Shown: positions 750 to 18,697, counted from the stretch's first letter. The stretch: 18,697 nucleotides of DNA from an uncultured bacterium (GCA_963777505.1 CAVZQN010000009.1:1-18697), one strand, 5' to 3'. Notes: a model not told the origin generated them from the sequence alone. Numbers and translations: made by a program.

Positions 750-753
750 TTTT

Positions 754-1529: not shown

Positions 1530-1693
1530 CTATGCCTCCTTAGTCTGCTAAGAGGCCGGCGGCAGTGTAATCCTTAATAGCTTTTTTGAACTGCGGCCAT
1601 TAGAAATAAGTGGCAATTTGTAACGATACCACCGGCCTTCATTTCAAGTTCAGCAAACGTGAGTGCTCAAATACATCAGAACGTTAATATCCA

Positions 1694-2899
1694 TTATTTA
1701 CGCAGTGATCTGAACCCCGCGCGAACCTCTTCTGTGAAGAGCTTCGGCTGTTCCCAGGCGGCAAAGTGCCCGCCCTTGTCGAGCTTATTGAAATGGATCA
1801 GTTTGGGATACGCCTTCTCTGCCCAGCTCCGCGGCGCTTGGTAGAGCTCGTCCGGGAACACGCTTACGGCCGCCGGGATGTTGACGCCCTTGACGGTAAC
1901 GTAACTGTACGGGTTCTCCCGGTAGAGACGACCGGAGGAGACGCCCGTGTTCGTCAACCAGAAGTGGGTGCAGTTGTCGAGGACGTCGTCTCGCGTCAGG
2001 CCTTCGGGCACGCCTTCAAAGGACCGCGCAATCAGTTCGAGGCTGCGCGGGTCGTGGTCGAGCAGCCAGGCAGCCAGGCCGACTGGTGAATCCGCGATGG
2101 CGTATAGCGTTTGCGGGCGCGACGCCATGTAGAAGGCGTACTGAACGTTCTTGTAGGTGAACGCCAGCATGTCGCACGCGAGCTTCTCGTCGGGAGAGAG
2201 ACCTGAAGGCAGCGGACTGCCAGCCCCGATGAGCTTGTCGATTTCAGGTGGGACTGTGCCAGGAAAGTTTGTGTGTATGCCGATCAATCCCGGCGGAGCC
2301 TGTACGGCCATCAGGTCCGTTACGACCCCGCCCCAGTCACCGCCTGACGCCACGTAGCGTGCGTAGCCTAGACGATTCATCAACACCACCCAGGCGCGGG
2401 CGATGCGGTCGGGGCCCCAACCAGTCGAGGTTGGCTTTCCTGAGTATCCATACCCAGGCATCGACGGGACGACGACATGGAACGCGTCCGATGCGATTCC
2501 ACCGTGTGCTGTCGGATTGGTCAGCGGCTCGATGATCTTGAGCTGTTCGACTATTGAGCCAGGCCAGCCATGAGTGATAATGATCGGGAGGGCGTTCTCG
2601 TGTTTCGAGCGAGCATGAATGAAGTGAATGTCCAGCCCATCGATCTCGGTGATGAATCCCGGGAAGGCGTTAAACCTCGCTTCGCACTTGCGCCAGTCGT
2701 ACTCCTTTCCCCAATAGCGCTGAAGCTTCTCGATCGTCGCGAGTGGCACTCCCTGCGACATGTCTGCGACGGGTTCTTTCTCAGGCAACCGCGTGGCATT
2801 GATGCGCCGAAGCATATCGGCCAGTTCCGCTTCCGGAACTTTCACACTAAACGGACGAATCGCGTTCTTCTCTGTAGCTTGCTCATTACTTTGTGTCAT
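1694..2899 (-). CDS. Epoxide hydrolase (EHN N-terminal domain plus alpha/beta hydrolase fold)
   Basis: IRPF..YDWR N-terminus, HGWP oxyanion motif, SMPGYGYS, GGDWG nucleophile and GGHFAAWEQP catalytic His. Intact 401-aa ORF with an AAGGGAG RBS. Confidence 0.93.
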   Translation of the reverse strand: MTQSNEQATEKNAIRPFSVKVPEAELADMLRRINATRLPEKEPVADMSQGVPLATIEKLQRYWGKEYDWRKCEARFNAFPGFITEIDGLDIHFIHARSKHENALPIIITHGWPGSIVEQLKIIEPLTNPTAHGGIASDAFHVVVPSMPGYGYSGKPTSTGWGPDRIARAWVVLMNRLGYARYVASGGDWGGVVTDLMAVQAPPGLIGIHTNFPGTVPPEIDKLIGAGSPLPSGLSPDEKLACDMLAFTYKNVQYAFYMASRPQTLYAIADSPVGLAAWLLDHDPRSLELIARSFEGVPEGLTRDDVLDNCTHFWLTNTGVSSGRLYRENPYSYVTVKGVNIPAAVSVFPDELYQAPRSWAEKAYPKLIHFNKLDKGGHFAAWEQPKLFTEEVRAGFRSLRK

Positions 2900-3227
2900 T
2901 TTCTTATCTCCCTTTTGATTGGTTTTGGGTTTTAGGTTTCTGCGCGGCTAAGGAAACGAACGCAGCGATAAGAACGCCGAGCGGATCTCTTCTAGAAAAG
3001 CAATGAAATGAAAATGTTGATCTACTTAACGCTGTGACCTACAAAAATAAGAAAGGTAGGATGGCGCGCATTAGACACTTGTGACCCTGAATTTTAAGAT
3101 CACTTAGTAACGCTATCAAAAAGTGCTTCTAGACAATATTGGACTTTAGTCCCATATCGCATGACATCATTTATTAAAGTATTACAGCTTGTGTGTTCCG
3201 TAAATTCAACTAATTATGTGGGCTTAA

Positions 3228-3264
3228 TTTGCCAAATAGCAAAAACGGTTTGCTGATTGGCAAA
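3228..3264. promoter_or_regulatory. Imperfect palindrome, candidate enhancer (UAS) for a sigma54 activator
   Basis: TTTGCCAA-AT-AGCAAA-aacgg-TTTGCT-GA-TTGGCAAA, located about 50-90 bp upstream of the sigma54 box. Confidence 0.5.
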
Positions 3265-3314
3265 ACGATCGACTTCTATCTCCTTTCCACACTCGTTATA
3301 AGTTGCCTCTCGAT

Positions 3315-3331
3315 TTGGCATGAGCGTTGCA
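3315..3331 (+). promoter_or_regulatory. Sigma54 (RpoN) -24/-12 promoter
   Basis: TTGGCATGAGCGTTGCA has exact GG-N10-GC spacing and differs by one base from the TGGCACG-N4-TTGCW consensus. It is followed by the RBS AGGAGG (3344-3349) and an ATG at 3359. Confidence 0.75.
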
Positions 3332-3358
3332 AATGCTGACAGAAGGAGGGTCATCGCC

Positions 3359-4522
3359 ATGTTTAGAGTCGGAATTAATTCAGCTCCAAGGATCGTATCA
3401 AAGGAAATCACTGAAGCGCAGGAAGCTCCATCACAAACGACAGAACAACAAGTTGTGCCAGCGGAATCCAAATTTGTACAAAAAGGGAATTCATCGATTC
3501 GAAGTGAAGCGATGTTTTCAGCAACGGCAATCCGAGCTCAGCTCAGTCAGCAGCTTACATTAAAAGAGTCAATGAAATTGAACCCGGAGCCGCTTCAAAA
3601 TCTGGAACAATCGGATCGTTTAGCCTTAACTTCGGAACAGGTGAATCGAGAAATCAATACTCCACTCGAATACGATTCAGGCAATCGTTTCAACAAGACA
3701 ACTCTGGAGAATGCCAACGTTCCGTCGTTAAATACTCTTTATACAGGATCGGGCGATGACAATGTGTTTATTCAGCATAATAAAAGTGATGACCTCGTGT
3801 ATGTTTCAGTGAATGGGAAAGAGGCCTGGAAGGGAACGTATGAACAGTTTTCGAAATTAACCATCGATACGGGCGATGGAAAGGACTTCGTATCAATCAA
3901 TACCACTGTAGCGAACGTTGTTACTGGCAGCGGAGATGATTTTGTAATGGTTGGATCTATAAGTCGTCAGGTTGATACAGAAACCGAAATAAAAATCAAT
4001 ACGGGCAGCGGTAATGATGCAGTAGAGAATTATGTATCCTCTGCCACCATTCAAACCGGCGATGGAATCGATAGCGTATACAATTTGGGTAATAAGACCA
4101 CTATCGACACTGGTGAGGGACAAGACAGAGTTTACAACGAAGGCAACATGAATCGGATTGAAACTGGAAATGGAAACGACCAAGTTCAAAACTATGGCAG
4201 TGACAACGAGATCCGTACTGCCTCTGGAAACGACCAAGTTTATAACTATGGCAGTGACAACGAAATTCGTACTGGCTCTGGAGACGATATGGTATACAAC
4301 CAGGGGGCGATCTTAGTCCAAGATCCAGTTGAGGCAATTTGGAATTATGCGGAAGGCGGTGGGGGCGACCGCAATATAATTGACACCGGTGACGGAAACG
4401 ATGCTGTTTCTTTTAGCTTATACGCAGATGACAACCTCGTTTCGACAGGATCTGGTGATGATTTCGTTGTTGATCATGGATCACTTAATCAAGTCGATAC
4501 CGCCGTGGAAGAGGATTCATAA
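3359..4522 (+). CDS. RTX/hemolysin-type calcium-binding repeat (beta-roll) protein
   Basis: About 12 (I/V)xTGxGxDxV repeats in the C-terminal two thirds and no Sec signal peptide. I moved the start from 3320 to 3359 because of the AGGAGG RBS and because the ATG at 3320 lies inside the sigma54 box. Confidence 0.75.
   Translation: MFRVGINSAPRIVSKEITEAQEAPSQTTEQQVVPAESKFVQKGNSSIRSEAMFSATAIRAQLSQQLTLKESMKLNPEPLQNLEQSDRLALTSEQVNREINTPLEYDSGNRFNKTTLENANVPSLNTLYTGSGDDNVFIQHNKSDDLVYVSVNGKEAWKGTYEQFSKLTIDTGDGKDFVSINTTVANVVTGSGDDFVMVGSISRQVDTETEIKINTGSGNDAVENYVSSATIQTGDGIDSVYNLGNKTTIDTGEGQDRVYNEGNMNRIETGNGNDQVQNYGSDNEIRTASGNDQVYNYGSDNEIRTGSGDDMVYNQGAILVQDPVEAIWNYAEGGGGDRNIIDTGDGNDAVSFSLYADDNLVSTGSGDDFVVDHGSLNQVDTAVEEDS
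4171..4278 (+). repeat. 54-bp tandem duplication (2 x 18 aa) inside the RTX-like gene
   Basis: TGGAAACGACCAAGTT...AACTATGGCAGTGACAACGA.AT.CGTACTG.CTC starts at both 4171 and 4225, encoding GNDQVQNYGSDNEIRTAS / GNDQVYNYGSDNEIRTGS. Confidence 0.9.
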
Positions 4523-4578: not shown

Positions 4579-6342
4579 ATGATGCTGATGTTTTCATCAG
4601 CATTCTGGCGAAAGTTTTACTTCTTTGCGTTGCCGCTCGCCGTCGTGCTTACGATCCGTAATGCGCTGATGGATTTCCACTGGGGGTTAGCGCCTTCGCT
4701 GCAACTGACATTCAAGTACAACGCGATTGTCTGGGGTTTGTGGCTCTTGATCGCGCCGTGCCTGATCCGCCTGTTCCCACGAATCATCGCGCTCCCGAAA
4801 CAATATCGCTGGCCGATCCTTGTATTGCTTCCGCCTGTCACAGCCCTTTTGCACGTATTGATTCATCATTATTTATACGGGAGCAGGTTCCGTTTTATCC
4901 AGATTGGCTGGGGTGACTTTTACGTGACCGTACTTCTGTTTGCCTGTTATGCAGCAAAATTGCACGAAGATCGATTGCAAGCAGAGCAGGAATCCGCAGA
5001 ACTGGAGGCGCGGATCCAGCAGGTGGAACTGGCAAATATCCGGAACCGGCTCGATCCGGAATCGATCTATCAAACGCTAAGATCGGCTGCAAAACGTATC
5101 GATAACGATCCGGAAGCAGCGGATTTGCAGCTCTCGCGCTTAGGGGAACACTTGCGTTCCTTGCTGCGCGATTCTTTGGTTTACTTGAAGGATTCCATCC
5201 CGCGAAAGGAAAAAGAGTCTCCGAAGGATTTCGTCAATACACAATTGGTACGATGGGTCGCATTGTTGTGGATACTTCTGGGAGGCGCAATGGTGCTGGC
5301 GAGTCTTCTCGATCGGTGGTTTGTGTACTCCGTTGCTGTCAATTGGAAACAAATGTTTCGACTGTGGATTAGCTGGGTTGCATGTGCTGTATGGAGTCCC
5401 GCAATTTTCTGGATCAATCGAAATTATCCACTGACTCCCTTCCGAATCCGGCATGTAGCGATCCATCTGGTTTCTTGCCTTTACTTCCAATTCACAATCG
5501 GTTCTTGTTTGAATCTGATGGCGTTTGGATTCGAAAATTTTGTGGCCAGAATGCCAAGCATCTTCTACGGCGGGCTTTTCGTGGGTTTCAAATTTGATGT
5601 TTATGTCGCCATTTTGGTCCTTGGAATCCTGGTAGAGCGGTACAAAAAAAAGGCAAACGAGCGTCTTCGTGCTGCAAAGCTTGAGAGTACTTTGTTCCAT
5701 GCAGAACTCGATGCTCTTCGGATGCAGCTTCATCCGCACTTTCTTTTTAATGCGCTGAATTCCATCATCGAACTTCTGCATGAGAATCCGGAGCGGGCAA
5801 AGTCCTTGCTGCTGCGGCTCGAACAGTTTCTGGCAATGACATTGAACGCAGGGCAGGAACAGCAGATTTCACTTCGGCGCGAACTGGATTTCGTGGAATG
5901 CTACCTGGAAATGCAGAAAGTTCGGTTCCCGAAACGTCTTTCGATTCGCGTGGACATCGATCCTACAACGTCCGATTCGCGTGTTCCGGCTTTGCTGTTG
6001 CAGCCTTTAGTGGAAAACGCAGTTCGTCATGGAGTGGCTCGCAGCATGGAAGCAGGAGAGATCCGGATTCGGACAGAATCGAAAGGCAAGGTGCTTCGAC
6101 TTTCGGTGGAAAATACTTGTCCCATGGTAGGCCGCGAATCGGAAGTCAGCAAAGGCGTCGGGCTTACAAACACTCGCAAACGGCTCGAATACCTGTATGG
6201 CACTCAATATAGTATGGCGATGCAGCGCCTCGACTCCGGAGATATGTCCGTTACGATCGATCTGCCTATTTCTCGGATCCCCGCATCTCCCTTCAAGGAC
6301 ACAACGCAGATTTTTCAGACTGCGTTGTTGCCGATTGAATAG
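4579..6342 (+). CDS. LytS/YehU-family membrane sensor histidine kinase with a duplicated N-terminal sensor/pseudo-DHp module
   Basis: LRMQLHPHFLFNALNSI H-box, ELDFVECYLEMQKVRF, LLQPLVENAVRHG N-box and GVGLTN G-box. Two blocks of transmembrane helices, each followed by a His_kinase-like helical region. Confidence 0.92.
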   Translation: MMLMFSSAFWRKFYFFALPLAVVLTIRNALMDFHWGLAPSLQLTFKYNAIVWGLWLLIAPCLIRLFPRIIALPKQYRWPILVLLPPVTALLHVLIHHYLYGSRFRFIQIGWGDFYVTVLLFACYAAKLHEDRLQAEQESAELEARIQQVELANIRNRLDPESIYQTLRSAAKRIDNDPEAADLQLSRLGEHLRSLLRDSLVYLKDSIPRKEKESPKDFVNTQLVRWVALLWILLGGAMVLASLLDRWFVYSVAVNWKQMFRLWISWVACAVWSPAIFWINRNYPLTPFRIRHVAIHLVSCLYFQFTIGSCLNLMAFGFENFVARMPSIFYGGLFVGFKFDVYVAILVLGILVERYKKKANERLRAAKLESTLFHAELDALRMQLHPHFLFNALNSIIELLHENPERAKSLLLRLEQFLAMTLNAGQEQQISLRRELDFVECYLEMQKVRFPKRLSIRVDIDPTTSDSRVPALLLQPLVENAVRHGVARSMEAGEIRIRTESKGKVLRLSVENTCPMVGRESEVSKGVGLTNTRKRLEYLYGTQYSMAMQRLDSGDMSVTIDLPISRIPASPFKDTTQIFQTALLPIE

Positions 6343-6345
6343 CTG
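6276..6345. repeat. 70-bp direct repeat, copy A (further copies at 7665-7735 and 8969-9025)
   Basis: GATCCCCGCATCTCCCTTCAAGGACACAACGCAGATTTTTCAGACTGCGTTGTTGCCGATTGAATAGCTG. It encodes the kinase C-terminus on + and a propeller-gene 3' end (..QSEKSALCP*) on -. Confidence 0.95.
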
Positions 6346-6363
6346 GACAACTCCTACGATCCA

Positions 6364-7659
6364 CTAAGGACATTCTGTGGAAAGACTGAAAGGAAAATTC
6401 GTCGAACGAATATTAAGTGTCGCGGTATGAAATTCGGCGCTTAGATTATTGAGTGGAAAATCAGACCAGGAGAAAGGAGCATTCGAATTCCTGACCGGAA
6501 TCGTTGGCAGTCCGGAGCAACTGGTGGATCCTGTAAGCGGAAGCTCTACCAGGGTTACATCTTCTAAGGTTGTGTTGAAACCAACGCAACCGGCAGAAAC
6601 AATCGATTCAGAGTCAGCAGATTTCACTGCATTGGAGAATGCAGTTGACCTTTGATTCACTTCATAGCTTCTTTTCCATTTCACGGCGCCCGTTTTTGAG
6701 ATTTTCAGGACCACACCTTTCGTCAGTGATGCGTCCGGGTCGAACGCATTACCTGATAGCATGAAACTCTCGTCATCCAGAACAAACCCTGGACGAAGGC
6801 TCAAAGTATGTCCGGATATGCCGAAACTTTTCGTCCATAGCCTGCGATCCTGATCGTCAAAGCGAGCAATGAAGGTCTTGCCCGCTGCGGCTTGTTGGAG
6901 TGGGGCAAGGTAACCGAGAATGTAGCCTCCCGGACCGGGAAGATAAAACAAGCCTAACGAGTCGGCCGTCTCCGCAACACGTGACCATAAAACGTTTCCA
7001 GTTCTATCCAATCGAATCCAGAGCGCACGCATTTCGCTCTGGACTTCCGTGCTCGTTGGAATCACAAAGGAATGATCATTCAGGATTGCAATTTCTTCCC
7101 CCACGTGTTCCAGACCATTTGTTCCGATCACTTTTCGCCACAGCAGTGCACCTGCCCGCGAGAATCTCGCCACAAACAGATCCACATCAGTCGTCGAAGA
7201 AAAACGGTGCCCTGCTGCAATGATGCTGCCATCATTCAAGACTCTGACCATTCGAAATTCATCATCTTCGGGCGTTCCGAGAGTTTTTTTCCACACCAAA
7301 CGCCCTGTCCCGCTGAATTTTGCAATCCATCCATCGGTTCCGTTGGATGGAGTAACTATGCTTCCAACAACAGCGAAGCCATTATCACTTGTCACAGCCA
7401 CTGACCAGGGTATGAGAGCTCCATCGGCCGTGATCTTTTTCGTTGTCAGTATTGTTCCATCAGCGTTTAAAAGCATGAAAATGAGACTGCCCGAACTGTC
7501 GCGGATGGCGAGACCAACTTTTCCAGAACCATTCGTTCCGACTTCACCGGCGCACTGACGGCCGTCAGCGATGAAAGATGTAATCTGATCGGCATTGGCT
7601 AGAGTATGTGCAATCAAAAAGAATACAAATAACAATGTCAGAAAGTTCGTTCTAAACAT
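6364..7659 (-). CDS. Secreted beta-propeller-like repeat protein, paralogue 1 (divergent)
   Basis: Signal-peptide-like MFRTNFLTLLFVFFLIAHTLANA and ~50-aa repeats of the type GxLxWKKxLGT..D. It ends in CP like the other two paralogues. The ATG at 7659 is preferred to 7692, which overlaps the upstream gene. Confidence 0.75.
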   Translation of the reverse strand: MFRTNFLTLLFVFFLIAHTLANADQITSFIADGRQCAGEVGTNGSGKVGLAIRDSSGSLIFMLLNADGTILTTKKITADGALIPWSVAVTSDNGFAVVGSIVTPSNGTDGWIAKFSGTGRLVWKKTLGTPEDDEFRMVRVLNDGSIIAAGHRFSSTTDVDLFVARFSRAGALLWRKVIGTNGLEHVGEEIAILNDHSFVIPTSTEVQSEMRALWIRLDRTGNVLWSRVAETADSLGLFYLPGPGGYILGYLAPLQQAAAGKTFIARFDDQDRRLWTKSFGISGHTLSLRPGFVLDDESFMLSGNAFDPDASLTKGVVLKISKTGAVKWKRSYEVNQRSTAFSNAVKSADSESIVSAGCVGFNTTLEDVTLVELPLTGSTSCSGLPTIPVRNSNAPFSWSDFPLNNLSAEFHTATLNIRSTNFPFSLSTECP

Positions 7660-7664
7660 AGACT

Positions 7665-7735
7665 GATCCCCCGCATCCTCCTTCAAGGACACAACGCAGA
7701 TTTTTCAGACTGCATTGTTGCCGATTGAATAGCTG
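7665..7735. repeat. 70-bp direct repeat, copy B
   Basis: Near-identical to 6276-6345 and contains the stop codon of paralogue 2. Confidence 0.95.
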
Positions 7736-8953
7736 CTGTTTGATTGCGGAATGCTGCCGGAAGCACAGCGATCGAAAAATTTCTGAGCGTCATGGATGCT
7801 CCCGCTACAGAAATCGGTGCAGAAGTCATGCGGCTGCATCCTCCAGTATTGCCGGAAAGCGGAAGGTTCAAGGTCACCATGTCGCTTGCCTGCGTGTTCC
7901 ACCCGACGCATCCAGCAGCAAAAATGCTCCCATCGGTTTGCGGGACTGCGCCACTGATAGTGGATTGCGCAAGGTTTAGAGATCGCTTCCACTGCACTCC
8001 GCCGGTGCCGGAAATCTTCATCAGCACTCCTTTCAATGTCGATTGTGTAGATGCATTGCCCACCAGCACCAAACTTCCATCCGCATTTACGAAACCGTGA
8101 CTGAGAAACATCGAAGATCCAGAATGCGAATAAGACTTCGCCCACACCAATCGATCCGTTGCATCAAAACGGCTGATGTTTGTTTTTTCAAGTTGTCCTT
8201 GCTACATGCGGTCCCAGGCTTCCGAGATAGTACCCGCCGTTCGGATTCTCCATGTAAAAAACTCCGGCGAATTCCTTCGTGGATCCAACGCGCGCGCTCA
8301 GGACAGTGCCGCTCAAACTCAGCTTGATCCACAACGGTAAAAACGGGGACGATTCCTGTTCCAGCAGAAACCATCAACGCGGGTCCATTCGCGGAGGTGA
8401 TGGAGCTGCCGTGATCGAGGGAGGGAGTTCCAAGAACTTTTCTCCACAACAATGCGCCTCCCTTGGACAACCGTGCAATCAACAGGTCATACGAAGTAGA
8501 AGCGGAAATGCGATGTCCCAGCACCGCAATCGAGCCATCCTGCAATACAGTTACACCATGCAGTTCATCATTTTCGGCGGTGCCAAAAATCTTTTTCCAA
8601 ACGATGTTGCCGGCGGAACTCACCTTGAACACGATTGCATCCCTATCTCCGGAAGGCAGTGCAATTGCCCCCACAACAATAAATCCACCATCCGAAGTCG
8701 AGGCGATGTCCGAAGGGCTTATTGTTCCGCTGGAACTGAATCTCCTGTTGAATCTCAAACTCAGATCGGGATTGAAGAGCAACAGTCCCGCCACATTTTG
8801 ATCAATTACAAGTGTCGCGATCCTGCCATTGGCATCGATGGAAACATCCGCAGGACATTGGGATCCGGGCAGAACAAACTGGCTCAGCACATCTGCTGCT
8901 ACCGTATAGGAAACAAGTGTCAGTATGCATGCAAGAAATACGTAACGCGTCAT
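7683..8953 (-). CDS. Secreted beta-propeller-like repeat protein, paralogue 2 (two +1 frameshifts: sequencing error or recent pseudogene)
   Basis: ORFs 8087-8971 and 7683-8150 are collinear with paralogue 3 after removing one base in the A-run 8339-8343 and one near 8199. 1271 nt minus 2 = 423 codons. RBS GGAGGT precedes MTRYVF. Confidence 0.8.
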
Positions 8954-8977
8954 AAGTACACCTCCGTTCATCTCCCT

Positions 8978-10252
8978 TCAAGGACATAACGCAGATTTTT
9001 CAGACTGCGTTGTTGCCGATTGAATGGCCGTTGTTTGTGTATGGAATGTTGCTGGGAGCGCAGCGATCGAAAAATTACTGATCGACAATGATGCTCCCGC
9101 CACAGAAATCGGCGCAGAAGTCATGCTGCTGCATCCTCCAGTATTGCCAGAAAGCGGAAGGCTCAAGGCTACGACATCGCTTAAATCGTTCGCGCCGCTG
9201 CATCCGGCAGCAAAAATATTTCCATTTGTTTGCCGCACTGCGCCGGTGAAGTAGGAATGCGCAACATTCAGCAGACGTTTCCACTGAACTCCCCCGGAAC
9301 TGGAAATCTTCATCACCACTCCTCTAAATATCGATGGCGTTGATGGTGTAGATGAATTGCCCACCAGTACCATGCTTCCATCCGCATTTACAAAACCGTA
9401 CGGTGTAGTCAGCATATTTCCTGGAAACCCATAAGATTTTGCCCAAACCAGCCGATCCGTCGCATCGAAACGGCTGATGTTTGTTTTTTGGAGTTCTCCA
9501 TGCACCAGCGGTCCTGCGCTTCCGAGGTAGTACCCGCCATTCGGATTCTCCTTGTAAAAAATTCCGATTGATTCCCGTGTGGATCCAACGCGCGCGCTCA
9601 GCACAGCACCGCTCAAACTCAATTTGATCCATAACGGTGAAATCGGCGTGTCTCCTGTTCCAGCAGAGACCATTATTGCGGGTCCGTTTGCGGAGGTAAT
9701 GGATCCAGCATGATCGATGGAGGGAGTTCCAAGAACCTTTTTCCACAACAATGCGCCCCCCTTGGAAAGACGTGCAATCAAGAGGTCTAACGAATTAGAA
9801 GCGGTTATGCGATGTCCCAGCACTGCAATCGAGCCATCCTGCAATACAGTCACGTAGTGCAGCTGATCAATATCGGGGGTGCCAAAAACCTTTTTCCAAA
9901 GGATGTTGCCGGTGGCACCCAACTTGAACACGATCGCATCTGTATCTCCGGAGGGTAATGAAATGGTCCCCGCCACAACATATCCACCATCCGGAGTTGG
10001 GGTGACGCCTGAAGAGTCTAACGTTCCGCTGGAACTAAATCTCCTGTTGAATTTCAAAGTCAGATCGGGATTGAAGAGCAACACTCCGGCTGCATTTTGA
10101 TCAATTAAGGACGTTGCGATCCTGCCATTTGCGTCGATGGATACTCCAGTAGCGCATTGGATGCCTGGCAGAACAAACTGACTCAGCACATCTGCTGTCG
10201 CGGTAAAGGAAACCAGTGTCAGGATGCATGCAAGGAATGCGTAACGCGTCAT
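8978..10252 (-). CDS. Secreted beta-propeller-like repeat protein, paralogue 3
   Basis: Intact 424-aa ORF with the signal peptide MTRYAFLACILTLVSFTATA, WKKxFGT-type blade repeats, a C-terminal CP and a GGAGGT RBS. Confidence 0.8.
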   Translation of the reverse strand: MTRYAFLACILTLVSFTATADVLSQFVLPGIQCATGVSIDANGRIATSLIDQNAAGVLLFNPDLTLKFNRRFSSSGTLDSSGVTPTPDGGYVVAGTISLPSGDTDAIVFKLGATGNILWKKVFGTPDIDQLHYVTVLQDGSIAVLGHRITASNSLDLLIARLSKGGALLWKKVLGTPSIDHAGSITSANGPAIMVSAGTGDTPISPLWIKLSLSGAVLSARVGSTRESIGIFYKENPNGGYYLGSAGPLVHGELQKTNISRFDATDRLVWAKSYGFPGNMLTTPYGFVNADGSMVLVGNSSTPSTPSIFRGVVMKISSSGGVQWKRLLNVAHSYFTGAVRQTNGNIFAAGCSGANDLSDVVALSLPLSGNTGGCSSMTSAPISVAGASLSISNFSIAALPATFHTQTTAIQSATTQSEKSALCP

Positions 10253-10298: not shown

Positions 10299-10328
10299 AT
10301 TGTAGGAGTGATGCTACGCGGAAAACAA
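10299..10328 (-). promoter_or_regulatory. Candidate sigma70 promoter for the propeller array
   Basis: Minus strand TTGTTT-N18-TACAAT, about 10 bp downstream of the LytTR-type repeats. Confidence 0.45.
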
Positions 10329-10337
10329 GAATCTGTT

Positions 10338-10368
10338 CCCGAATGGTTCGCGCGGGCGCACGAACGGG
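10338..10368 (-). promoter_or_regulatory. LytTR-family binding site (direct repeat)
   Basis: Minus strand CCCGTTCGTG-N11-ACCATTCGGG with a 21-bp period. It resembles the AlgR site (ACCGTTCGTC) and the general LytTR direct-repeat geometry. Confidence 0.65.
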
Positions 10369-10383
10369 TGATAGAGCGCGCGA

Positions 10384-11103
10384 CTAAAGCGCATGTCCCA
10401 GCAAATGTTGAAGGCGCTCCTTATAACGCCGGCTCAGGATGAGCTGAGTTTCATCGTTCAGAACCACGCGATAGTCACCATGAAACAACGGCTGCAGTTT
10501 CTGAATGCGGTCAATGTTCACCGCATAGGAGCGATGAATCCGAACAAACTTCGATGGATCGAGCCGGGCAAGAAGTCCCGTGATTCCCTCACGCGACAGC
10601 AGTTGTTTCGACTTCACGTGAGTGATAGCAGAATGCCCGTTCGCTTCGATCCAATCGATATCATTCACGTTGATCAGGATGAGTTCTTCGCCGCTTCTCA
10701 TTGCAAGACGATTGGCGTAAATCGGGCTTCGTGAATCTGTTTCCAGGTGATGCAAAAGACGTTGCATCGCTTCGTCGAATCGGGGGCGGCTGAACGGCTT
10801 CAGCAGATAATCCACCGCCTGCACATCAAACGCTTGCACCGCATAGTGCTCGAATGCCGTGATGAAGATGATGTAAGGACGCTTCTCGCGAGGGATTCGT
10901 TGAAGCAGCTCAAATCCATTCAACCCTGGCATTTCCACATCCAGGAATAGGACGTCTGGATTGTCTTCCGAAATAGACCGCAAGGCTACGTTCGCATCAT
11001 CGAGGATTTCCACACGGCTCGCAATCGGATAAGACTTGAGGAACCTCTTCACTCGATTGCAGCTGAGCGGCTCGTCATCCACAATCAACACTTTGAGATT
11101 CAT
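10384..11103 (-). CDS. LytTR/AlgR-family DNA-binding response regulator
   Basis: REC domain (VLIVDDE, FLDVEMP, FITAF, DYLLKP) plus LytTR domain (IDWIEA, FVRIHRS, LSRRY). Confidence 0.95.
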   Translation of the reverse strand: MNLKVLIVDDEPLSCNRVKRFLKSYPIASRVEILDDANVALRSISEDNPDVLFLDVEMPGLNGFELLQRIPREKRPYIIFITAFEHYAVQAFDVQAVDYLLKPFSRPRFDEAMQRLLHHLETDSRSPIYANRLAMRSGEELILINVNDIDWIEANGHSAITHVKSKQLLSREGITGLLARLDPSKFVRIHRSYAVNIDRIQKLQPLFHGDYRVVLNDETQLILSRRYKERLQHLLGHAL

Positions 11104-11114
11104 ACCACAATCAT

Positions 11115-11234
11115 ATTTGAGATTTCAGATGTAAGATTGCAGATTGTAATTGAAGCATTTTAGATTGATAGACGCTCTATCAATCTTCCAATCGTAACAT
11201 TTCAATCTGAAATCAGTAATCTGATATCTAAAAT
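11115..11234. repeat. ~120-bp imperfect palindrome built from 7-mer repeats
   Basis: The left arm has GATTTCA/GATGTAA/GATTGCA units and the right arm the complementary TCTGAAA/TCAGTAA/TCTGATA units. Perfect core AGATTGATAGA-cgc-TCTATCAATCT at 11162-11186. Confidence 0.8.
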
Positions 11235-11238
11235 GGAA

Positions 11239-11261
11239 TGGCGGAGAGGGTGGGATTCGAA
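11239..11261 (-). mobile_element. tRNA-Ser 3'-end fragment, att site (island boundary)
   Basis: The minus strand reads TTCGAATCCCACCCTCTCCGCCA: T-loop, 3' T-stem, Ser-type acceptor strand, G73 discriminator and CCA. There is no anticodon or D arm upstream, so it is not an intact tRNA. Confidence 0.85.
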
Positions 11262-11385
11262 AACACAAAAAGCCGCTAAACCCTCACAACCGCAAGAGAT
11301 AGTATACAAAAGACTTATTTATTTCGGTTCAATTTCTTTCTGTTTCTTTTTGTATGTTTTCAGCCCGGTTTGCGGAACTTCTTCA

Positions 11386-11405
11386 TGGCACAAATCTGGC
11401 ACAAA
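11386..11405. repeat. Tandem TGGCACAAA repeat, candidate tyrosine-integrase arm-type sites
   Basis: TGGCACAAA at 11386 and 11397 (11-bp period), ~125 bp inside the att fragment, beyond an AT-rich tract. Confidence 0.6.
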
Positions 11406-11787
11406 AGTCTTTTGAGAAACGATAAAAAAGAAACAGATGTGACTTCTACACGGTCAAAGTTTTCGGAAACTTGCGGCGGAACGTGCGCATAACTCTTATG
11501 TGCGAGATTTCTGCTTTCAGGAATTTGATCGTTACCCGGTTACTTTCGCGCTGAAGCGATCGCGGCAATTCAAAACAAAGTCGGAGCCTTTCTTGAACAA
11601 TTAAAAGCTAAACCGTAGTAAAACGTCGATCTCTGTTTTTTGTCTTGTTCGTTCGCACCACAAGACCCTTTGAAATTTGTTGTTACATTGATTCAAAGAA
11701 CCCATTGAACACTCCTGATTAATTCTTCATATATTTAGATAGACAAGATATTGTTCCCCATTCACATAACAGATTGGAAGGGAAATA

Positions 11788-13054
11788 TTGGAGAAATCGG
11801 CAGGAAAAGAAACTCCACTGGTAAAAATTTTTGGCAGAGTTGGCTCATCGGTTGGTTATGCTATTCGTGATTTCCTTCATCGTAGTGATATTCCTTTCGA
11901 ATGGGTTCAACTGACCAGCGATGATCAAGCGCGAAAGGACGTGGGAGTTGATCATCTGCATGATTTCGCGGCTACCTGTTTGCGTTTTTCCGGATGGTAC
12001 TCGAATGGAGTGCCCAACGATTCAACAGATTACTCAAAAGCTTGGCTGGTTCAACACACCATCACGCAACGAATATGACCTTGCTATATATGGTGCAGGA
12101 CCCGCTGGTTTAAGTGCTGCTGTTTATGGTTCTTCTGATGGACTTAAAACAGTTTTGGTCGAACGATGGGCCGTAGGAGGACAAGCTGCGAGCAGCGCGA
12201 GCATCGAAAATTATCTGGGATTTCCTGGAGGAATCAGTGGAGCGGAATTGGCAGAAAGAGCACGCAACCAAGCTTGCCATTTTGGAACAGAAATCCTTTT
12301 AGGCCGTGAAGGAGTTCGCGCCGAATTCTTGCCTGGAAAAGGTGTGGGTCATCTAGCGGATGGCACGAAGATTGTTGCGCGTGCATCTATTTGTGCAACG
12401 GGCATGGAATACCGTCGTCTTGGTTTGCCGAATGAGGACCGGTTTCTTGGCGCGGGTTTGTATTATGGCGCAGGTGCCAGTGAAGCAGTTCTAACCAAAA
12501 ACCAACGTGTGTTTATTGTTGGTGGTGGCAATTCTGCCGGTCAAGCTGCAATGCACTTTTCCGCTTTTGCGAGTCAGGTAACATTGGTAGTTCGCGCCGA
12601 ATCTTTGAAAAGTACATTATCCCATTATCTTGTGGAGCGTATCTACGCTGCTTCCAATGTGGAAGTGCTGACGCGACATGAAGTAGTCGCATTGGAGGGT
12701 GATCAAATCTTGCAAGTGATTACTCTTCGTAACCTTGAGACTCGTCAGGAACGTAAGGCCAAAACTCAATGGTTGTTTGTATGTATTGGGGGAGTGCCGC
12801 AAACCCAATGGGCTACAGAGGTAGGCATTGTTCGTGATGAGAGTGGATACATTGTTACCGGGCCTGATCTGATTCTTGAAGGACGACTGCGAGAGAATTG
12901 GCCTTTGGACCGTAGTCCATATTATCTGGAAACAAACATACCGGGTGTGTTTGCTGCCGGCGATGTCCGCCATGGGTCAGTAAAACGCTTTGCCGCTGCA
13001 GTGGGCGAGGGTGCAATGGCAGTGGCCTTCGTAAATCGATATCTTGGGAACTAG
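11788..13054 (+). CDS. Thioredoxin reductase-like (TrxB-family) FAD/NAD(P)H oxidoreductase with an N-terminal glutaredoxin-like domain; one +1 frameshift near 11965
   Basis: GAGPAGLSAA, IENYLGFP, VGGGNSAG and TNIPGVFAAGDV motifs. ORF 11788 (..IRDFLHRSDIPFEWV..) joins ORF 11921 on removal of one T (HLHD-SRLPVCVFPDG). Confidence 0.85.
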
Positions 13055-13323
13055 AATTTGATATCAAGAAAATCAATATTCAACAATGCCAAATCCGATA
13101 AGAGGCATATTATTTACGATATCTGACGCTTCACTGAACTCCGAAGTTCTCTTCAGATTTAGAAAGTTCCGCCCTTTTTGAGTCAGGGGCGAAACGAAAC
13201 TGGTAGAAATCTTCGCTTCGGAGGCCAACCACCTTCGGGCCAAATATTGCTACTTCATTCGTATCTCCGTTTGATGGAAACGAACGAAGTAAACCGACTT
13301 AACATAACAGGAAAGGAATTCAT

Positions 13324-13809
13324 ATGGCAAGACGCTGGATTCCAACAGACTGGTCGGCACTTACATTTTATCAACGCATTGAAAGCTTAATCGCGTTGTT
13401 GCTAACTTTCATTACTACACTTGTCATTCTTGTTGCTTTGTACCGTTTGATTTTGGAAGTTGTCGGAGGGCTCGTTTTCGGCGCTTTAAATCCACTGGAG
13501 CACTCCAATTTCCAAACTGTGTTTGGTGAAATCATGACAGTACTGATTGCGTTAGAGTTTAACCACACTCTTCGATATGTTGTAACTCGCGAGCAAAGCG
13601 TTATTCAAACGAAAGTTGTCTTGCTAATCGCTCTCCTGGCATTGGCTCGCAAATTTATCATCTTGGATCTAAAAGAGATGACCTCTAACGAACTATTTGG
13701 ATTGGCGGCTGTTACATTGGCGCTTGGAATCACTTGTTGGTTATTGCCGGGGTCTGAAAATCATTCTCCTTTTATTAAGGAGACAAAATCCAAAGCAGGT
13801 GAAGGATAA
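13324..13809 (+). CDS. psiE: Phosphate-starvation-inducible PsiE-family membrane protein (PsiE-GI-like)
   Basis: Four hydrophobic helices with NPLEH..FQTVFGEIMTVLIALEF.H and IALLALARKFIILD motifs. Confidence 0.85.
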   Translation: MARRWIPTDWSALTFYQRIESLIALLLTFITTLVILVALYRLILEVVGGLVFGALNPLEHSNFQTVFGEIMTVLIALEFNHTLRYVVTREQSVIQTKVVLLIALLALARKFIILDLKEMTSNELFGLAAVTLALGITCWLLPGSENHSPFIKETKSKAGEG

Positions 13810-13849
13810 AGTGAATACCAAGCCTAATCTTGAAAAAATGAGGTGAAAC

Positions 13850-16600
13850 ATGGCTGAAAACCTATGTGATATTTGCAATAAACGACCTGCCGTTGCTACG
13901 GTGAGAGTAAGACGAAACGGCCGGGAAGAAAGGCTGAATGTCTGCCAATACGATTTGCAGCGACTTGAAAGTCAGCAAGAATTTTCCTCCCCATTTTCTT
14001 CATTCTTTAGCGGTGAAGATCCATTCGAGAGGTTCTTCGGCAAAGACTTTCCATCGTTTTCTTCCGACATGGGATATCCGATCCCTCGTCACCGTGAAGC
14101 GGTGGATATCAGTCAATACTTTTCCGATCAAACGAAAGAGTTGATTCAACAGTCAGGCGAGAAGGCCGTTGAATTAAGGCGTAATGAAGTTGATACGGAG
14201 CATCTCTTATTTGCTCTTGCTGATAGCGATGTCGTTCAGGAAATTTTCAAGCAATTCAAGATTAAGCCTCAAGATGTGAAGGAATACATTGATGCTAACG
14301 CACCTAAAGGACCAGAAGACAAGAAAGAAAAAGCCGGTCAGATTGAGCTTAGTATTTCTCCACGCCTTAAGAACGTTTTTGAATTTGCATTCGGCGCATC
14401 CCGTGAACTTGGCCACGGTTATGTTGGTCCTGAACATTTGTTAATCGGATTAACGCAAGAAGAAGGATTGGCCGGAGAGTTGCTTCGAAAATATGGGTTA
14501 ACGCCTGAGAGCCTACGCCAACAAACCGTAAAAGTCGTAGGCCGTGGCGCTGAAGAAGGCAGAGTAGATTCAAAATCGACTACTCCACTACTCGATAAAT
14601 ATTCACGTGATCTCACCAAGCTCGCAAAAGAAAGCAAACTCGATCCCGTGATCGGTAGATACGATGAAATAGAAACCACGATCGAAATCCTTTCGAGACG
14701 GACAAAGAATAATCCCGTACTGATCGGTGAGCCCGGCGTTGGTAAAACGGCAATCGTGGAAGGTCTGGCACAGAGAATTATTAATGAAGACGTGCCAGAG
14801 GTTTTGCTAAATAAGCGCGTCGTGGAATTGAACACAAATTCAATGATAGCCGGTACCAAATATCGAGGTGAGTTTGAAGAGCGGATTAAAAATGTACTGG
14901 ATGAAGTTACTCAACACAAAGAGGAATTGATTCTTTTTGTTGATGAAGTGCACACCATTGTCGGCGCAGGAAGTTCAGAAGGCGGTCTCGATGTTGCGAA
15001 TGTAATGAAGCCTCATCTGGCGCGCGGCGATCTGCATTTGATTGGTGCAACAACTCTCAATGAGTACCAGAAACACATAGAAAAGGATTCCGCATTAGAA
15101 AGGCGATTCCAACCTGTGTTTGTTCCGGAACCCACTGTCGAACAAACGATTGAAATACTTCGAGGCTTGCGTGATAAGTACGAAGCACATCACAAAGTGA
15201 AGATTACAGACGAAGCGATTGTTTCTGCGGCTAGTCTTTCCGATCGATATATTGCAAATCGGTTCCTGCCCGATAAAGCAATTGATTTGATCGATCAAGC
15301 AGCTTCACGCGTAAGAATTTTATCAACGCGAGTCCCGCGCGAGATTCGTGTAACCGACGAAAAAATTGGAAAGCTCAAACGCGAACAGGAATTTGCATCA
15401 TCACGAAAACAATTTGATAAAGCAAAAGAACTGGATAAGGAGATTAACTCATTAACAAAAGAACGCGAACAACTTCAAGAAAAAATGAAATTGCAAATTG
15501 GTGTGACTACTCCTGAGGTGAAAAAGGAACACATTGCAGAAATCCTTTCCAAACTCACAGGCATACCAGTAGCCGAGCTGACGGAAGAAGAAAAACAAAA
15601 ACTTCTAAAAATGGAAGAAAGGCTTCACGAACGAGTCGTTGGACAGGAACAAGCAATTGCATCGATTTCTGACGCAATTCGTAGATCTCGTGCCGGCCTT
15701 ACGGAAAGGAATCGGCCGATAGCGAGCTTTATGTTTCTTGGTCCAACAGGAGTTGGAAAAACAGAACTGGCAAAGTCGATTGCCTGGTTTGTATTTGGAG
15801 ATGAGGATGCGCTGGTACGCATTGATATGTCGGAATACATGGAACGGCATAGCGTTTCCAGACTTATCGGAGCGCCGCCTGGATATGTTGGTTATGAAGA
15901 GGCCGGACAACTGACTGAAGCGGTGCGTCGCCGTCCCTACCGCGTCATACTGCTGGACGAAATCGAAAAAGCACACCCGGACGTCTATAACGTTCTTCTG
16001 CAACTATTCGATGATGGCAGATTAACAGATGGAAAGGGAAGAGTTGTGAATTTTACCAACACTATCATTATCGCAACCAGCAATATCGGTTCCGATATCA
16101 TTCAGGAGAATCTACGCAGAACGGAGATGAATCGGAAGAGCTATCAGGACCTGAAGAACGAATTAATGAGGGTCTTGAGATCTCATTTCAGGCCCGAGTT
16201 CTTGAATCGAATCGACGAGATCATTGTGTTCCATGCATTGTCTCAAGCGCAAGTGAAAGACATCACGAAATTGCAGTTGGAAAGAGTAAAGCGAACTGCG
16301 AGAGGTCAGGGAGTGGAACTGATATTTGACGATTCCCTGATCGATTACCTGAGTGATGTTGGCTATCTTCCTGAATTTGGAGCGCGTGAGTTGCGGCGTC
16401 GAATTCAAACCGACGTCGAAACTGTTCTTGCAAGAGCGATGTTGAAAGAAGATATCAAGGAGGGTGATCACGTCAAATTAAGTTATCGCGATGGAGAAGT
16501 AAAAATAGAAAAATTAACAGATCGCGAGAAAAAGCCGAAGAATGAACGTGAAGAATTTGCAACTCGCGGAAGTGACCTAGGAAGAGCGAAAGATCGATAG
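13850..16600 (+). CDS. clpG: ClpG/ClpK-type AAA+ disaggregase (Hsp100, class I Clp ATPase)
   Basis: Two Walker A motifs ([16 protein letters not shown]), a Clp N domain and an extra N1 segment with CDIC..C. The short M domain [15 protein letters not shown] recalls ClpG. No IGF/LGF ClpP-docking loop follows TSNIGS. Confidence 0.85.
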
Positions 16601-16634
16601 TTCCTCACTGCAGTAAAAGTGTGATGAGGTAAAC

Positions 16635-17387
16635 ATGATTCCGATCCGCGATACGATACCGAGCCGTAATCCTTCGATAATGATGGTTGCGCTGATCATG
16701 GTGAACAGTGTCATCTTTGCTCTGGAATTAATGCTGCCTGAACACCAACTGGATGCACTCATTCATATGTTCGGGCTCATTCCGGCTCGGTACACGCATC
16801 CTGAATGGGCGATGATGCTCGGTTTCCCGGTTGATGATTACTGGCCATTTTTTACCAGTATGTTTTTGCACGGCGGTTGGCTCCATATCATCGGAAACAT
16901 GTGGACCCTCTGGATTTTCGGAGACAACGTGGAGGACCGGATGGGGCCTTTGCGCTTTTTGATTTTTTACCTGCTGTGTGGACTTGCGGGTGGAATTGCT
17001 CATTGGTTCACCAATGCCAATTCCGCCATTCCTACGATCGGAGCATCGGGTGCAATCGCAGGCGTTTTGGGAGCTTATTTCGTTTTATTTCCCAAGGCCC
17101 GCATTATTGCGATGATACCGATCCTGTTTTTTCCATTTTTCTTTGAAATTTCCGCTTTCGTTTATCTTGGCATTTGGATGGTAACTCAGATCTTTAGCGG
17201 GACTATAGCATTGACGCAGCAAGAAGCGGCAGGCGGAATTGCATTTTGGGGTCATATTGGCGGCTTTATGGCGGGACTTCTCTTGCATCCTTTATTTATA
17301 AGACGCGAAAGAAGTATGCGGCCAGATGAATGGGAATTGGAAGGAGCCTGGCATCCTTTTAAGAAACGTGAACGATGGAGTTGGTAA
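16635..17387 (+). CDS. Rhomboid-family intramembrane serine protease
   Basis: MIPIRD start, SMFLHGGWLHIIGNM, GDNVEDRMG, catalytic GASG and GHIGG motifs. Confidence 0.95.
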   Translation: MIPIRDTIPSRNPSIMMVALIMVNSVIFALELMLPEHQLDALIHMFGLIPARYTHPEWAMMLGFPVDDYWPFFTSMFLHGGWLHIIGNMWTLWIFGDNVEDRMGPLRFLIFYLLCGLAGGIAHWFTNANSAIPTIGASGAIAGVLGAYFVLFPKARIIAMIPILFFPFFFEISAFVYLGIWMVTQIFSGTIALTQQEAAGGIAFWGHIGGFMAGLLLHPLFIRRERSMRPDEWELEGAWHPFKKRERWSW

Positions 17388-18223
17388 CGATGAATTTCAA
17401 TGATCTTATATGGCTCTTTTTTATGTTTTCCGCTCTTCAACCTGCGCTCACCAAAAGAATGATGGAAATTTCTCGACAACGGATGATCGCTCAAATAGAA
17501 CGTAAGCGAGGCTCGCGCGTCATTCTCATGGTTCATCGCCAGGAAACTATGAGTCTTTTCGGGTTTCCTGTTTTTCGATACATAGATATTGATGATTCCG
17601 AAGCAGTAATCAGGGCTATCCATATGACTGATCCGGATATTCCTCTTGATCTTGTTTTGCACACACCAGGCGGTCTTGTTCTTGCTTCACTGCAAATTGC
17701 ACGGGCAATTCACAAGCACAAGGGTAAGGTCACGGTATTTGTACCGCACTATGCGATGTCAGGCGGAACGTTGATCGCATTAGCTGCAACTGAGATCGTA
17801 ATGTCCGAACATGCTGTGCTAGGTCCGGTAGACCCACAGCTTGGACAATTTCCTGCAGCTTCTCTAATTAAGGTGGTAACTCAAAAGCCAATCGCAGAAA
17901 TTGATGACGAAACTCTGGTGCTTGCAGATCAGGGTGAAAAGGCAATTAAGCAAGTTCAAGAAAGTGTTTGGGAATTGTTGACTGGTAAGATTCCCGATCT
18001 GCAAGCAAAGAATTTGGCCGAATTACTTTCTCAGGGAACCTGGACTCATGATTATCCGATTACTTTTGATAAGGCTACGGAACTGGGTCTACCAGTGAGT
18101 TCAAAAATCCCAGATGAAATTCTGAAGTTAATGAGTTTGTATCCTCAACCTATGCGAACAAAACAACCTACTGTGGAATACCTTCCGGAACCACGGACCC
18201 GGAAGCAAGCCACCCAACCATAA
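17375..18223 (+). CDS. SDH-family ClpP-fold serine protease (membrane-anchored)
   Basis: LHTPGG, AMSGGT (Ser), LGPVDPQ (Asp) and WTHDYPI (His), with an N-terminal hydrophobic segment. An alternative start lies at 17390. Confidence 0.9.
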   Translation: MELVTMNFNDLIWLFFMFSALQPALTKRMMEISRQRMIAQIERKRGSRVILMVHRQETMSLFGFPVFRYIDIDDSEAVIRAIHMTDPDIPLDLVLHTPGGLVLASLQIARAIHKHKGKVTVFVPHYAMSGGTLIALAATEIVMSEHAVLGPVDPQLGQFPAASLIKVVTQKPIAEIDDETLVLADQGEKAIKQVQESVWELLTGKIPDLQAKNLAELLSQGTWTHDYPITFDKATELGLPVSSKIPDEILKLMSLYPQPMRTKQPTVEYLPEPRTRKQATQP

Positions 18224-18227
18224 TAGG

Positions 18228-18524
18228 ATGAAACACCAAATTACATTGAAAAATCTCGAGCAACCACAACAGCTCTAATAGCTGCTGCCACGATTCCTGT
18301 CAAAACTTGATAAGCTGTTACCAGGCTTTTCTGCGGATCAAGCTTTTTTTTGCATGGAACGCTGGAAAAACACACAACCCGATCCCTTTATCGCGTCTCG
18401 CTTATTTTGAATCTGTTTGGGACCAAGCTTGTCAAACATGAAGTACGGTCAGACTTGAAACTGGCAATTCGCGAAGCATTTCTTGAACTGGAACGCCCAG
18501 CTCAAGAAGTACAAAGCCTTGGTG
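18228..18524 (+). pseudogene. HPF/RaiA-like ribosome-associated protein pseudogene, truncated
   Basis: Reconstruction: MKHQITLKNLEQPQQL**LLPRFLSKLDKLLPGFSADQAF/LHGTLEKHTTRSLYRVSLILNLFGTKLVKHEVRSDLKLAIREAFLELER/QLKKYKALV. In-frame stops at 18276-18281 and two frameshifts. DLxxAIxEAFxxLERQLxKYK is HPF-like. Confidence 0.6.
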
Positions 18525-18697
18525 GCTCGAATGCTGTGATGAAGATGATGTAAGGGCGCTTCTCGCGAGGGATTCGTTGGAGCAGCTCAAATCCATTCAA
18601 CCCTGGCATTTCCACATCCAGGAATAGGACGTCTGGATTGTCTTCCGAAATAGACCGCAAGGCTACGTTCGCATCATCGAGGATTTCCACACGGCTC
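18525..18697 (-). pseudogene. Truncated duplicate of the LytTR regulator REC region (copy of 10848-11020), running off the window end
   Basis: 173 bp aligned without gaps with 3 mismatches. The frame diverges after FITAFE and ends at 18502. Confidence 0.9.

Follow-up and report, generated by a model that had tools for sequence, protein, structure and literature searches.

The subject of this analysis is a stretch of 18,697 nucleotides from an uncultured bacterium (GCA_963777505.1 CAVZQN010000009.1:1-18697; hereafter the window, at its full length), and in particular the segment that begins within a LytTR-family response regulator gene, runs through the upstream region of that gene, a fragment of a tRNA-Ser gene and a set of cargo genes centred on a ClpG-like disaggregase, and then adjoins a second copy of its own beginning. 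The segment from 10848 to 18524 is one complete unit of 7,677 bp, which is followed by the first 173 bases of a second unit, and the last base of the unit adjoins its first base at a single head-to-tail joint (18524|18525). The explanation favoured here, which is put at somewhat less than an even chance, is that homologous recombination, independent of any integrase, joined a unit from a sister lineage to the resident locus. An earlier note on this DNA had described an island bracketed by a duplicated piece of the regulator gene; what is seen is a single joint of the unit, with the second copy known for 173 nt, and a bracket on both sides is a candidate structure only.

A repeat search of the window showed that the regulator piece at 10848-11020, which spans the regulator gene from base 3 of codon 28 to base 1 of codon 86, recurs in direct orientation at 18525-18697, i.e. 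over 173 nt at a spacing of 7677 and with 98% identity (repeat family D3). Chance cannot account for such a repeat, by a wide margin; outside the paralogue region at 6279-9952, all remaining families with two copies are of 21-54 nt and 63-91% identity. Base-by-base comparison revealed that the copies agree at 170 of 173 positions, with mismatches (copy 1/copy 2) at 10858/18535 (C/T), 10879/18556 (A/G) and 10903/18580 (A/G). With respect to the minus-strand gene at 10384-11103 these are the third positions of codons 82 (ACG/ACA, Thr), 75 (CGT/CGC, Arg) and 67 (CTT/CTC, Leu), respectively; all three differences are silent third-position transitions, and both copies translate identically from S29 to E85. 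The repeat, its offset of 7677 and the three silent changes in Thr, Arg and Leu codons had been reported in the earlier note, and all were reproduced by the repeat search and the base comparison.

The edge of the homology at 18525 is sharp, in that the 30 nt ahead of it are unrelated to the 30 nt ahead of 10848, and within the repeat 10 identical bases stand ahead of the first mismatch. The joint shows neither terminal repeats, inverted or direct, nor visible microhomology, which fits an illegitimate join rather than the end of a transposon; nor is there any word of at least 11 nt, direct or inverted, that is common to the two ends of the cargo (11225-11800 and 18224-18540). Copy 2 (18525-18697, minus strand) is a truncated gene fragment, broken in codon 86: codons 29-85 are visible and encode the same protein (Pfam Response_reg, 3e-12), the first base of codon 86 is kept, and 7 foreign codons then lead to a stop at 18502-18504. 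At its other end the copy runs off the window, which stops exactly 117 nt after the last mismatch (18581-18697 being identical), with the right end of the repeat lying beyond. The window end at 18697 may be the end of a contig, at which an assembler re-entered sequence already used. A reading of the 117-nt identical tail as the k-mer size of the assembler is no more than a hint, because a plain unitig would have broken at the left copy too.

The silent nature of the differences bears upon the origin of the second copy. Under neutral change, the chance that three of three differences are silent is 0.014-0.027; it is about 0.06 for drift of the right copy in place with the left copy under selection, and 0.27-0.68 for evolution of both copies as working alleles. 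An allelic origin of the copy is thus modestly favoured over in-place drift, by 5-10-fold on three sites. The proposal of the earlier note that the copy diverged as part of a functional allele therefore gains a likelihood ratio of about 5-10, its modest weight reflecting the three sites on which it rests.

Between the regulator and the cargo lies a 23-nt fragment of the 3' end of a tRNA gene (11239-11261, minus strand), in which CCA, the discriminator, the acceptor 3' strand, the T-stem 3' half and the T-loop could be read by eye. Many unannotated Ralstonia phage records match positions 11237-11261 at 100% identity over 25 nt, and in 6 phage records among the matches listed, genes annotated as tRNA-Ser align with the stretch over 29 nt at 86% identity; the phage records that match number 193 in all, 111 of them at 99% or more. 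The Ralstonia phages concerned presumably use a tRNA-Ser attachment site. In the window there are no whole tRNA genes according to ARAGORN and no Rfam matches, and the tRNA core is present as a sole copy; the corresponding place at copy 2, at 18916-18938 or later, where the earlier note had predicted a tRNA-Ser 3' end (the coordinates agree with the offset of the repeat), falls beyond 18697. The tRNA-Ser matches in phages support a tRNA-Ser 3' fragment between the regulator and the cargo. A partial tRNA 3' end at one border is what is found in tRNA-integrated islands, and the fragment is probably an attachment-type (att) scar left by an old integration, at which foreign DNA begins on the left, its orientation placing the foreign DNA to its right. 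The tRNA-fragment end of such an island is normally far from the integrase, and integrases usually lie at the intact-tRNA end, so the original island, integrase included, may run past 18524. Description of the element as a 7.7-kb integrase-less island is accordingly putative.

The intact regulator (10384-11103, minus strand) is a protein of 239 amino acids with a receiver domain and a LytTR DNA-binding domain (Pfam Response_reg, 1.3e-24; LytTR, 1.4e-23), and it scores 153.9 bits against the NCBIfam BtsR model, under the cut-off of 246. The 135 nt between its start codon and the tRNA fragment (11104-11238) hold no open reading frame (ORF) with a family match. Synteny was examined in 80 loci fetched from genome contigs with the regulator protein, each with a 10 kb flank. 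The best genome-contig match has 41% identity, with matches in metagenome-assembled genomes of Acidobacteriota, Gemmataceae and Pyrinomonadaceae; relatives at 89-93% amino acid identity were encountered only on metagenome contigs of 0.9-2.2 kb, and the more distant named relatives are from Acidobacteria and Blastocatellia. The host is therefore probably Acidobacteriota-like, and not a proteobacterium. The cargo genes were present in 0 of the 80 loci, in which 21 tRNAs were detected, none of them Ser. A homologue of the kinase was present in 68 of the 80; in the best fetched relatives both matches are on the same strand, and the kinase match stops within ∼30-85 nt upstream of that to the regulator. 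In the window, the LytTR-type histidine kinase gene (4579-6342, plus strand) and the regulator gene are convergent, with three propeller genes between them. A protein search with the 64-amino-acid end fragment of copy 2 returned one match, at 55% identity, and no truncated 92-amino-acid form, so that the joint was not seen again. One relative (P0019) was considered as a second truncated regulator and dropped, its tail aligning with the linker of another full-length relative.

In the favoured explanation, the unit would comprise the first 85 codons of the regulator, its upstream region, the displaced tRNA-Ser 3' end and the integrase-distal arm of an integrated island. One illegitimate break-and-join event, linking the regulator at codon 85/86 to the gene-less tail behind the SDH-family protease gene, would have created the joint, with a circle or a tandem repeat as its product. 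At the joint, the adjoining copy would carry the allele of the sister lineage, and it is from the presence of silent differences only that we infer such an allele there and, in turn, the joining of the unit to the resident locus by homologous recombination. This recombination would be of the Campbell type and independent of an integrase; in a recipient without the cargo it would leave a flanking repeat of roughly 414 bp ending at an intact tRNA-Ser, and in a recipient that already had the cargo, a full tandem repeat. The exact scenario of the earlier note, in which an aberrantly excised circle re-integrated through tRNA/flank homology, amounts to the sub-case with a cargo-free recipient and is, as such, unlikely, albeit not strikingly so. 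Also counted for the favoured explanation are the positions of the copies, the left one inside an intact gene and the right one truncated, and the fact that the tRNA-Ser fragment stands exactly at the border between host-like and cargo sequence. A broader proposal, in which a non-autonomous, integrase-free ClpG island captured about 414 bp of host flank (tRNA-Ser 3' end to regulator codon 85) by aberrant excision and spreads among sister strains via homology of this flank, again by Campbell-type recombination and with the regulator left intact each time, is viewed as rather doubtful.

Several observations weigh against recombination with a unit from a sister lineage. All three mismatches lie within the first 56 nt (clustering P = 0.034), and no model predicts this clustering. 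The second copy is readable for 173 nt only, and three sites form a thin basis for an allelic origin. No vehicle is visible for the movement of a 7.7-kb circle between strains, and in composition the cargo does not stand out from the window overall. Two genes, namely the thioredoxin-reductase (TrxR)-like gene of the cargo and the middle propeller paralogue, have broken frames, which points to possible sequence errors in the assembly. Lastly, the restriction of the 89-93% regulator relatives to short metagenome contigs makes it probable that the source is itself a metagenome assembly, in which case no single molecule need ever have carried both copies.

The latter point is the essence of a possible artefact of assembly or population, whereby the joint would stem from a minority variant, a transient circle or a chimeric read and would have been tacked onto a contig built mainly from another strain, the copies not belonging to one molecule. 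The likely derivation from an uncultured population, with a best genome match to the regulator of 41% and closer relatives on contigs of 0.9-2.2 kb, is in keeping with this, as are the silent allelic differences, which are the pattern of two co-existing strains, the ending of the window within the repeat, 117 nt past the last mismatch, and the frame breaks in two genes, which hint at imperfect sequence. However, false joins normally arise where the joined pieces have sequence in common, of which 18524|18525 shows no sign; moreover, the unit has no replication gene, and a free circle could therefore not persist. A variant strain bearing the joint would need the same illegitimate event, and hence this alternative, which is improbable but carries some weight, concerns the place of the joint and not its making. 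Tandem duplicates, for their part, are unstable and usually identical. A tandem duplication of 10848-18524 in place in one genome, with later divergence and with a second tRNA fragment, a second TrxR-like gene and the remainder of the unit past the window, would fit the head-to-tail geometry, and the novel joint typical of such events is present; earlier tandem duplication at the locus is apparent from the three tandem paralogues at 6364-10252, extra copies of the ClpG stress cluster could be selected, and a near-identical repeat of 7.7 kb would presumably halt an assembler. Such a duplication is nonetheless considered quite improbable, given three differences within 56 nt where identity is usual, and a likelihood of silent-only change of about 0.06 in place versus 0.27-0.68 for alleles.

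It is also conceivable, but highly improbable, that a site-specific island in the regulator gene supplied a new 5' end, with the original 5' end displaced to become the right copy, the opening run of 10 identical bases serving as the crossover core, and the integrase either lost or provided in trans. Those 10 identical bases do precede the first mismatch, and the end of the intact gene does lie inside the element with a remnant end at the far border, which is the arrangement left by gene-end replacement. Gene-end replacement has precedents. In E. coli K-12, icd at the element e14 is flanked by an icdC fragment with 'parallel synonymous substitutions', according to the available text of PMC13626634, so that there, too, an element lies between an intact host gene that reaches into it and a homologous gene-end fragment, and the duplicated ends differ mostly silently; e14, however, replaces the 3' end, has its own integrase and excises precisely, whereas here a 5' part is duplicated and no recombinase was found. 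Islands at dusA, in the portion of PMC4482086 available, characteristically provide the target gene with a new 5' end, a remnant of the 5' end being found at the other border, but they have a dedicated integrase next to dusA and 21-bp semiconserved att repeats, in contrast to the absence of an integrase, the near-identical repeat of at least 173 nt and the internal tRNA fragment of the present unit. Against a site-specific island, then, stand the lack of any integrase or other recombinase in the unit, let alone a cognate one, the extra capture step needed to place a tRNA-Ser fragment inside the element, and the failure to find a related island in a regulator gene, the cargo genes being present in 0 of the 80 fetched loci.

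Capture of host flank by aberrant excision is classically represented by the lambda gal and bio specialised transducing phages. The proposed unit resembles these in that a legitimate att site, the tRNA-Ser core, would form one border and an arbitrary position within a neighbouring host gene would form the other, with the far arm of the element lost; it differs in that no phage or transfer functions are visible, and re-integration would putatively need host homologous recombination. Aberrant excision of the lambda type would be equivalent to the model of the earlier note, i.e. a sub-case of the favoured explanation. A limited search of the literature on aberrant excision of genomic islands, in the text available, met no such structure. 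As a kind, the feature is already known, from e14 with icd-icdC, from dusA islands and from cargo like that of the tLST, a transmissible stress-tolerance locus.

The cargo opens with an A+T-rich non-coding leader of about 525 nt (11262-11787; GC about 0.39-0.41). A credible Pfam match was obtained for none of the 17 stop-to-stop frames of the leader that were submitted, two of the 19 listed (11723-11824, plus strand, and 11762-11860, minus strand) having been left out of the test, and tblastx gave no match to plasmid loci. The genes that follow are all on the plus strand. The first (11788-13054) encodes a TrxR-like FAD oxidoreductase (Pyr_redox_2, 1.2e-34; TIGR01292, 224.6 bits, under the cut-off of 343), the frame of which is broken at 11964/11966: a 70%-identical homologue from Paraburkholderia aligns over residues 3-42 in frame 1 and over residues 43-403 in frame 2. 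The gene is either a pseudogene or carries an indel error near a short T run. Next is a PsiE-family membrane protein (13324-13809; PF06146, 3.5e-30), which matches 1321 plasmid records, every one at <60% identity. The largest gene (13850-16600) encodes a ClpG/ClpK-like stand-alone AAA+ disaggregase of 916 amino acids, to which the NCBIfam ClpG and ClpK models align over residues 1-879 with scores of 1272.9 and 1192.6 bits, respectively, both under the curated cut-offs of 1900 bits; its best plasmid matches are at about 61% amino acid identity. A rhomboid intramembrane protease (16635-17387; PF01694, 3.6e-39) and an SDH-family Clp-fold serine protease (17375-18223; PF01972, 1.8e-114; NF047768, 417.4 bits, above the cut-off of 250) complete the set, the two genes overlapping by 13 nt. 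The remaining tail of about 300 nt (18224-18524) has no recognisable gene and no family matches.

Within that tail the earlier note had recognised a gene like that for the ribosome hibernation factor HPF (HPF/RaiA family), cut by the joint together with the regulator copy. The regulator part of that claim stands, the copy being cut in codon 86 with a stop 7 codons on, but the HPF-like gene was rejected, having no family match in any search. Its frames are interrupted by adjacent TAA TAG stops at 18276-18281 and by a frame change; the 79-amino-acid frame at 18314-18550 and its neighbours matched no Pfam and no NCBIfam family at E values of up to 10, and the HPF-like frames matched no PDB chain and no homologue in a large protein set. 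When the stops were read as X, 18231-18407 shared 9 of 45 residues (20%) with HPF of E. coli K-12 by BLASTP (E = 0.078), and the second piece gave no match. The stretch is at most a decayed remnant, and a cargo-side gene cannot be called cut by the joint.

The window holds 104 ORFs of at least 50 amino acids, of which 20 large ones were put to a Pfam search. None of the 20 matched a recombinase or transposase family, barring P-loop cross-matches of the ClpG-like ORF to TniB/IstB, and recombinase families were likewise matched by none of 26 stop-to-stop frames from non-coding stretches. The contention that the 7,677-bp unit lacks a recombinase thus withstood the Pfam tests of both large ORFs and non-coding frames. 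Composition was discarded as a criterion of foreign origin, since it varies in mosaic fashion along the window: GC content at third codon positions (GC3) is 0.37-0.50 in the cargo, 0.47-0.59 in the regulator, kinase and propeller genes, and 0.34-0.41 in three genes of the left part (321-4522).

The island-like nature of the cargo, also anticipated, was upheld by the recurrence of ClpG-centred stress genes together on plasmids of other phyla. Of the 40 plasmid records matched by the SDH-family protease, 15 are at 60-80% identity, and a rhomboid protease is also annotated under the SDH match in 8 of the 15 rows listed. On the Paracoccus yeei plasmid NZ_CP020447.2, a run of genes encodes two Hsp20 proteins, MarR, FtsH, a ClpG-like ATPase, a sigma factor, HdeD, rhomboid, SDH, TrxC and a cation:proton antiporter, and is followed by transposases; as here, an overlapping rhomboid-SDH pair (SDH at 67% amino acid identity) lies in one stress cluster with a ClpG-like gene. 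The overlap is 13 nt in the window (16635-18223) and 10 nt on the Paracoccus plasmid (9306-10933 of the fetched locus). Rhomboid and SDH form a conserved protease pair in ClpG stress clusters, and are probably co-translated. Plasmid pI of Paraburkholderia dioscoreae has PsiE, an FAD oxidoreductase, a ClpG-like ATPase, Hsp20 and HdeD inside 10 kb, the likeness to the cargo residing in the 70%-identical FAD oxidoreductase beside PsiE and the ClpG-like gene. Both plasmid clusters differ from the cargo in gene order and companion genes. A megablast search of 10300-18697 against plasmids returned no match, and tblastx of the non-coding ends against the two plasmid loci returned none either.

Comparison with the tLST gave a similar picture of likeness and difference. 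The annotated tLST on an E. coli plasmid comprises clpK, cls, ftsH, hsp20-GI, yfdX1/2, hdeD-GI, trx-GI, an antiporter, PsiE, HtpX and a DegP-like protease, a gene content with which the available text of PMC8290217 is in agreement. Like the tLST, the LHR (locus of heat resistance) and TLPQC-1, the cargo combines in one laterally spread cluster a ClpG/ClpK-like disaggregase with proteases, an enzyme of thiol-redox chemistry and a member of the PsiE family. It differs in having no sHsp20, FtsH, YfdX, HdeD, Trx-GI, KefB-like antiporter, HtpX or DegP, in having instead a TrxR-like flavoprotein and the rhomboid-SDH protease pair, in the score of the ClpG-like protein, which is under the curated cut-offs, and in its host, which is probably not a proteobacterium. 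Indeed, among the ORFs at 11262-18524, none corresponds to the tLST set of sHsp20, YfdX, HdeD, Trx, KefB-like, HtpX-like and DegP-like proteins, PsiE alone being common to both. Since most of the defining genes are missing, the cargo is not classed as a tLST; it is, rather, a new compact relative of the ClpG-centred stress clusters, in a probably non-proteobacterial host.

The remainder of the window contains several other features. An epoxide-hydrolase-like gene (1694-2899, minus strand; EHN and alpha/beta hydrolase domains) has a GC content of 0.59 and a GC3 of 0.71, with neighbours at GC 0.43-0.44, and is likely to be a recent foreign gene. The plus-strand gene at 3320-4522 encodes a repetitive protein of 400 amino acids, the only Pfam signal of which is a sub-threshold match to DUF3060; it contains 54-nt tandem repeats at 4171-4278 (91% identical) and a further, 34-nt repeat family (D11, D12). 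Three tandem beta-propeller paralogues (6279-10252, minus strand; repeat family D6) are spaced about 1,295-1,390 nt apart, copies 2 and 3 being 75-89% identical at the DNA level. The kinase gene ends inside the first copy. Each paralogue has at its 3' end a 67-nt element, 91-96% conserved, in which a 9-bp hairpin was noted by eye. The middle paralogue (7683-8971, minus strand) is split into overlapping ORFs at 8087-8971 and 7683-8150, and its neighbours are whole, at 442 and 424 amino acids; the split represents a frame break, be it real or a sequence error.

Taken as a whole, the interpretation offered in the earlier note is coherent and partly supported, yet the 173 bases visible of the second copy would look no different under several other structures. 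Should the joint lie on a tandem repeat or represent an assembly loop, it would be routine. If, on the other hand, it lies on one chromosome, then it would be a record of a ClpG stress-tolerance cluster that was copied or moved without a recombinase of its own, and a natural example of the capture of host flank by an island, in a probably Acidobacteriota-like lineage where such clusters have hardly been described. Either way, the ClpG-PsiE-TrxR-rhomboid-SDH cluster widens the known range of tLST-like modules beyond the Proteobacteria.

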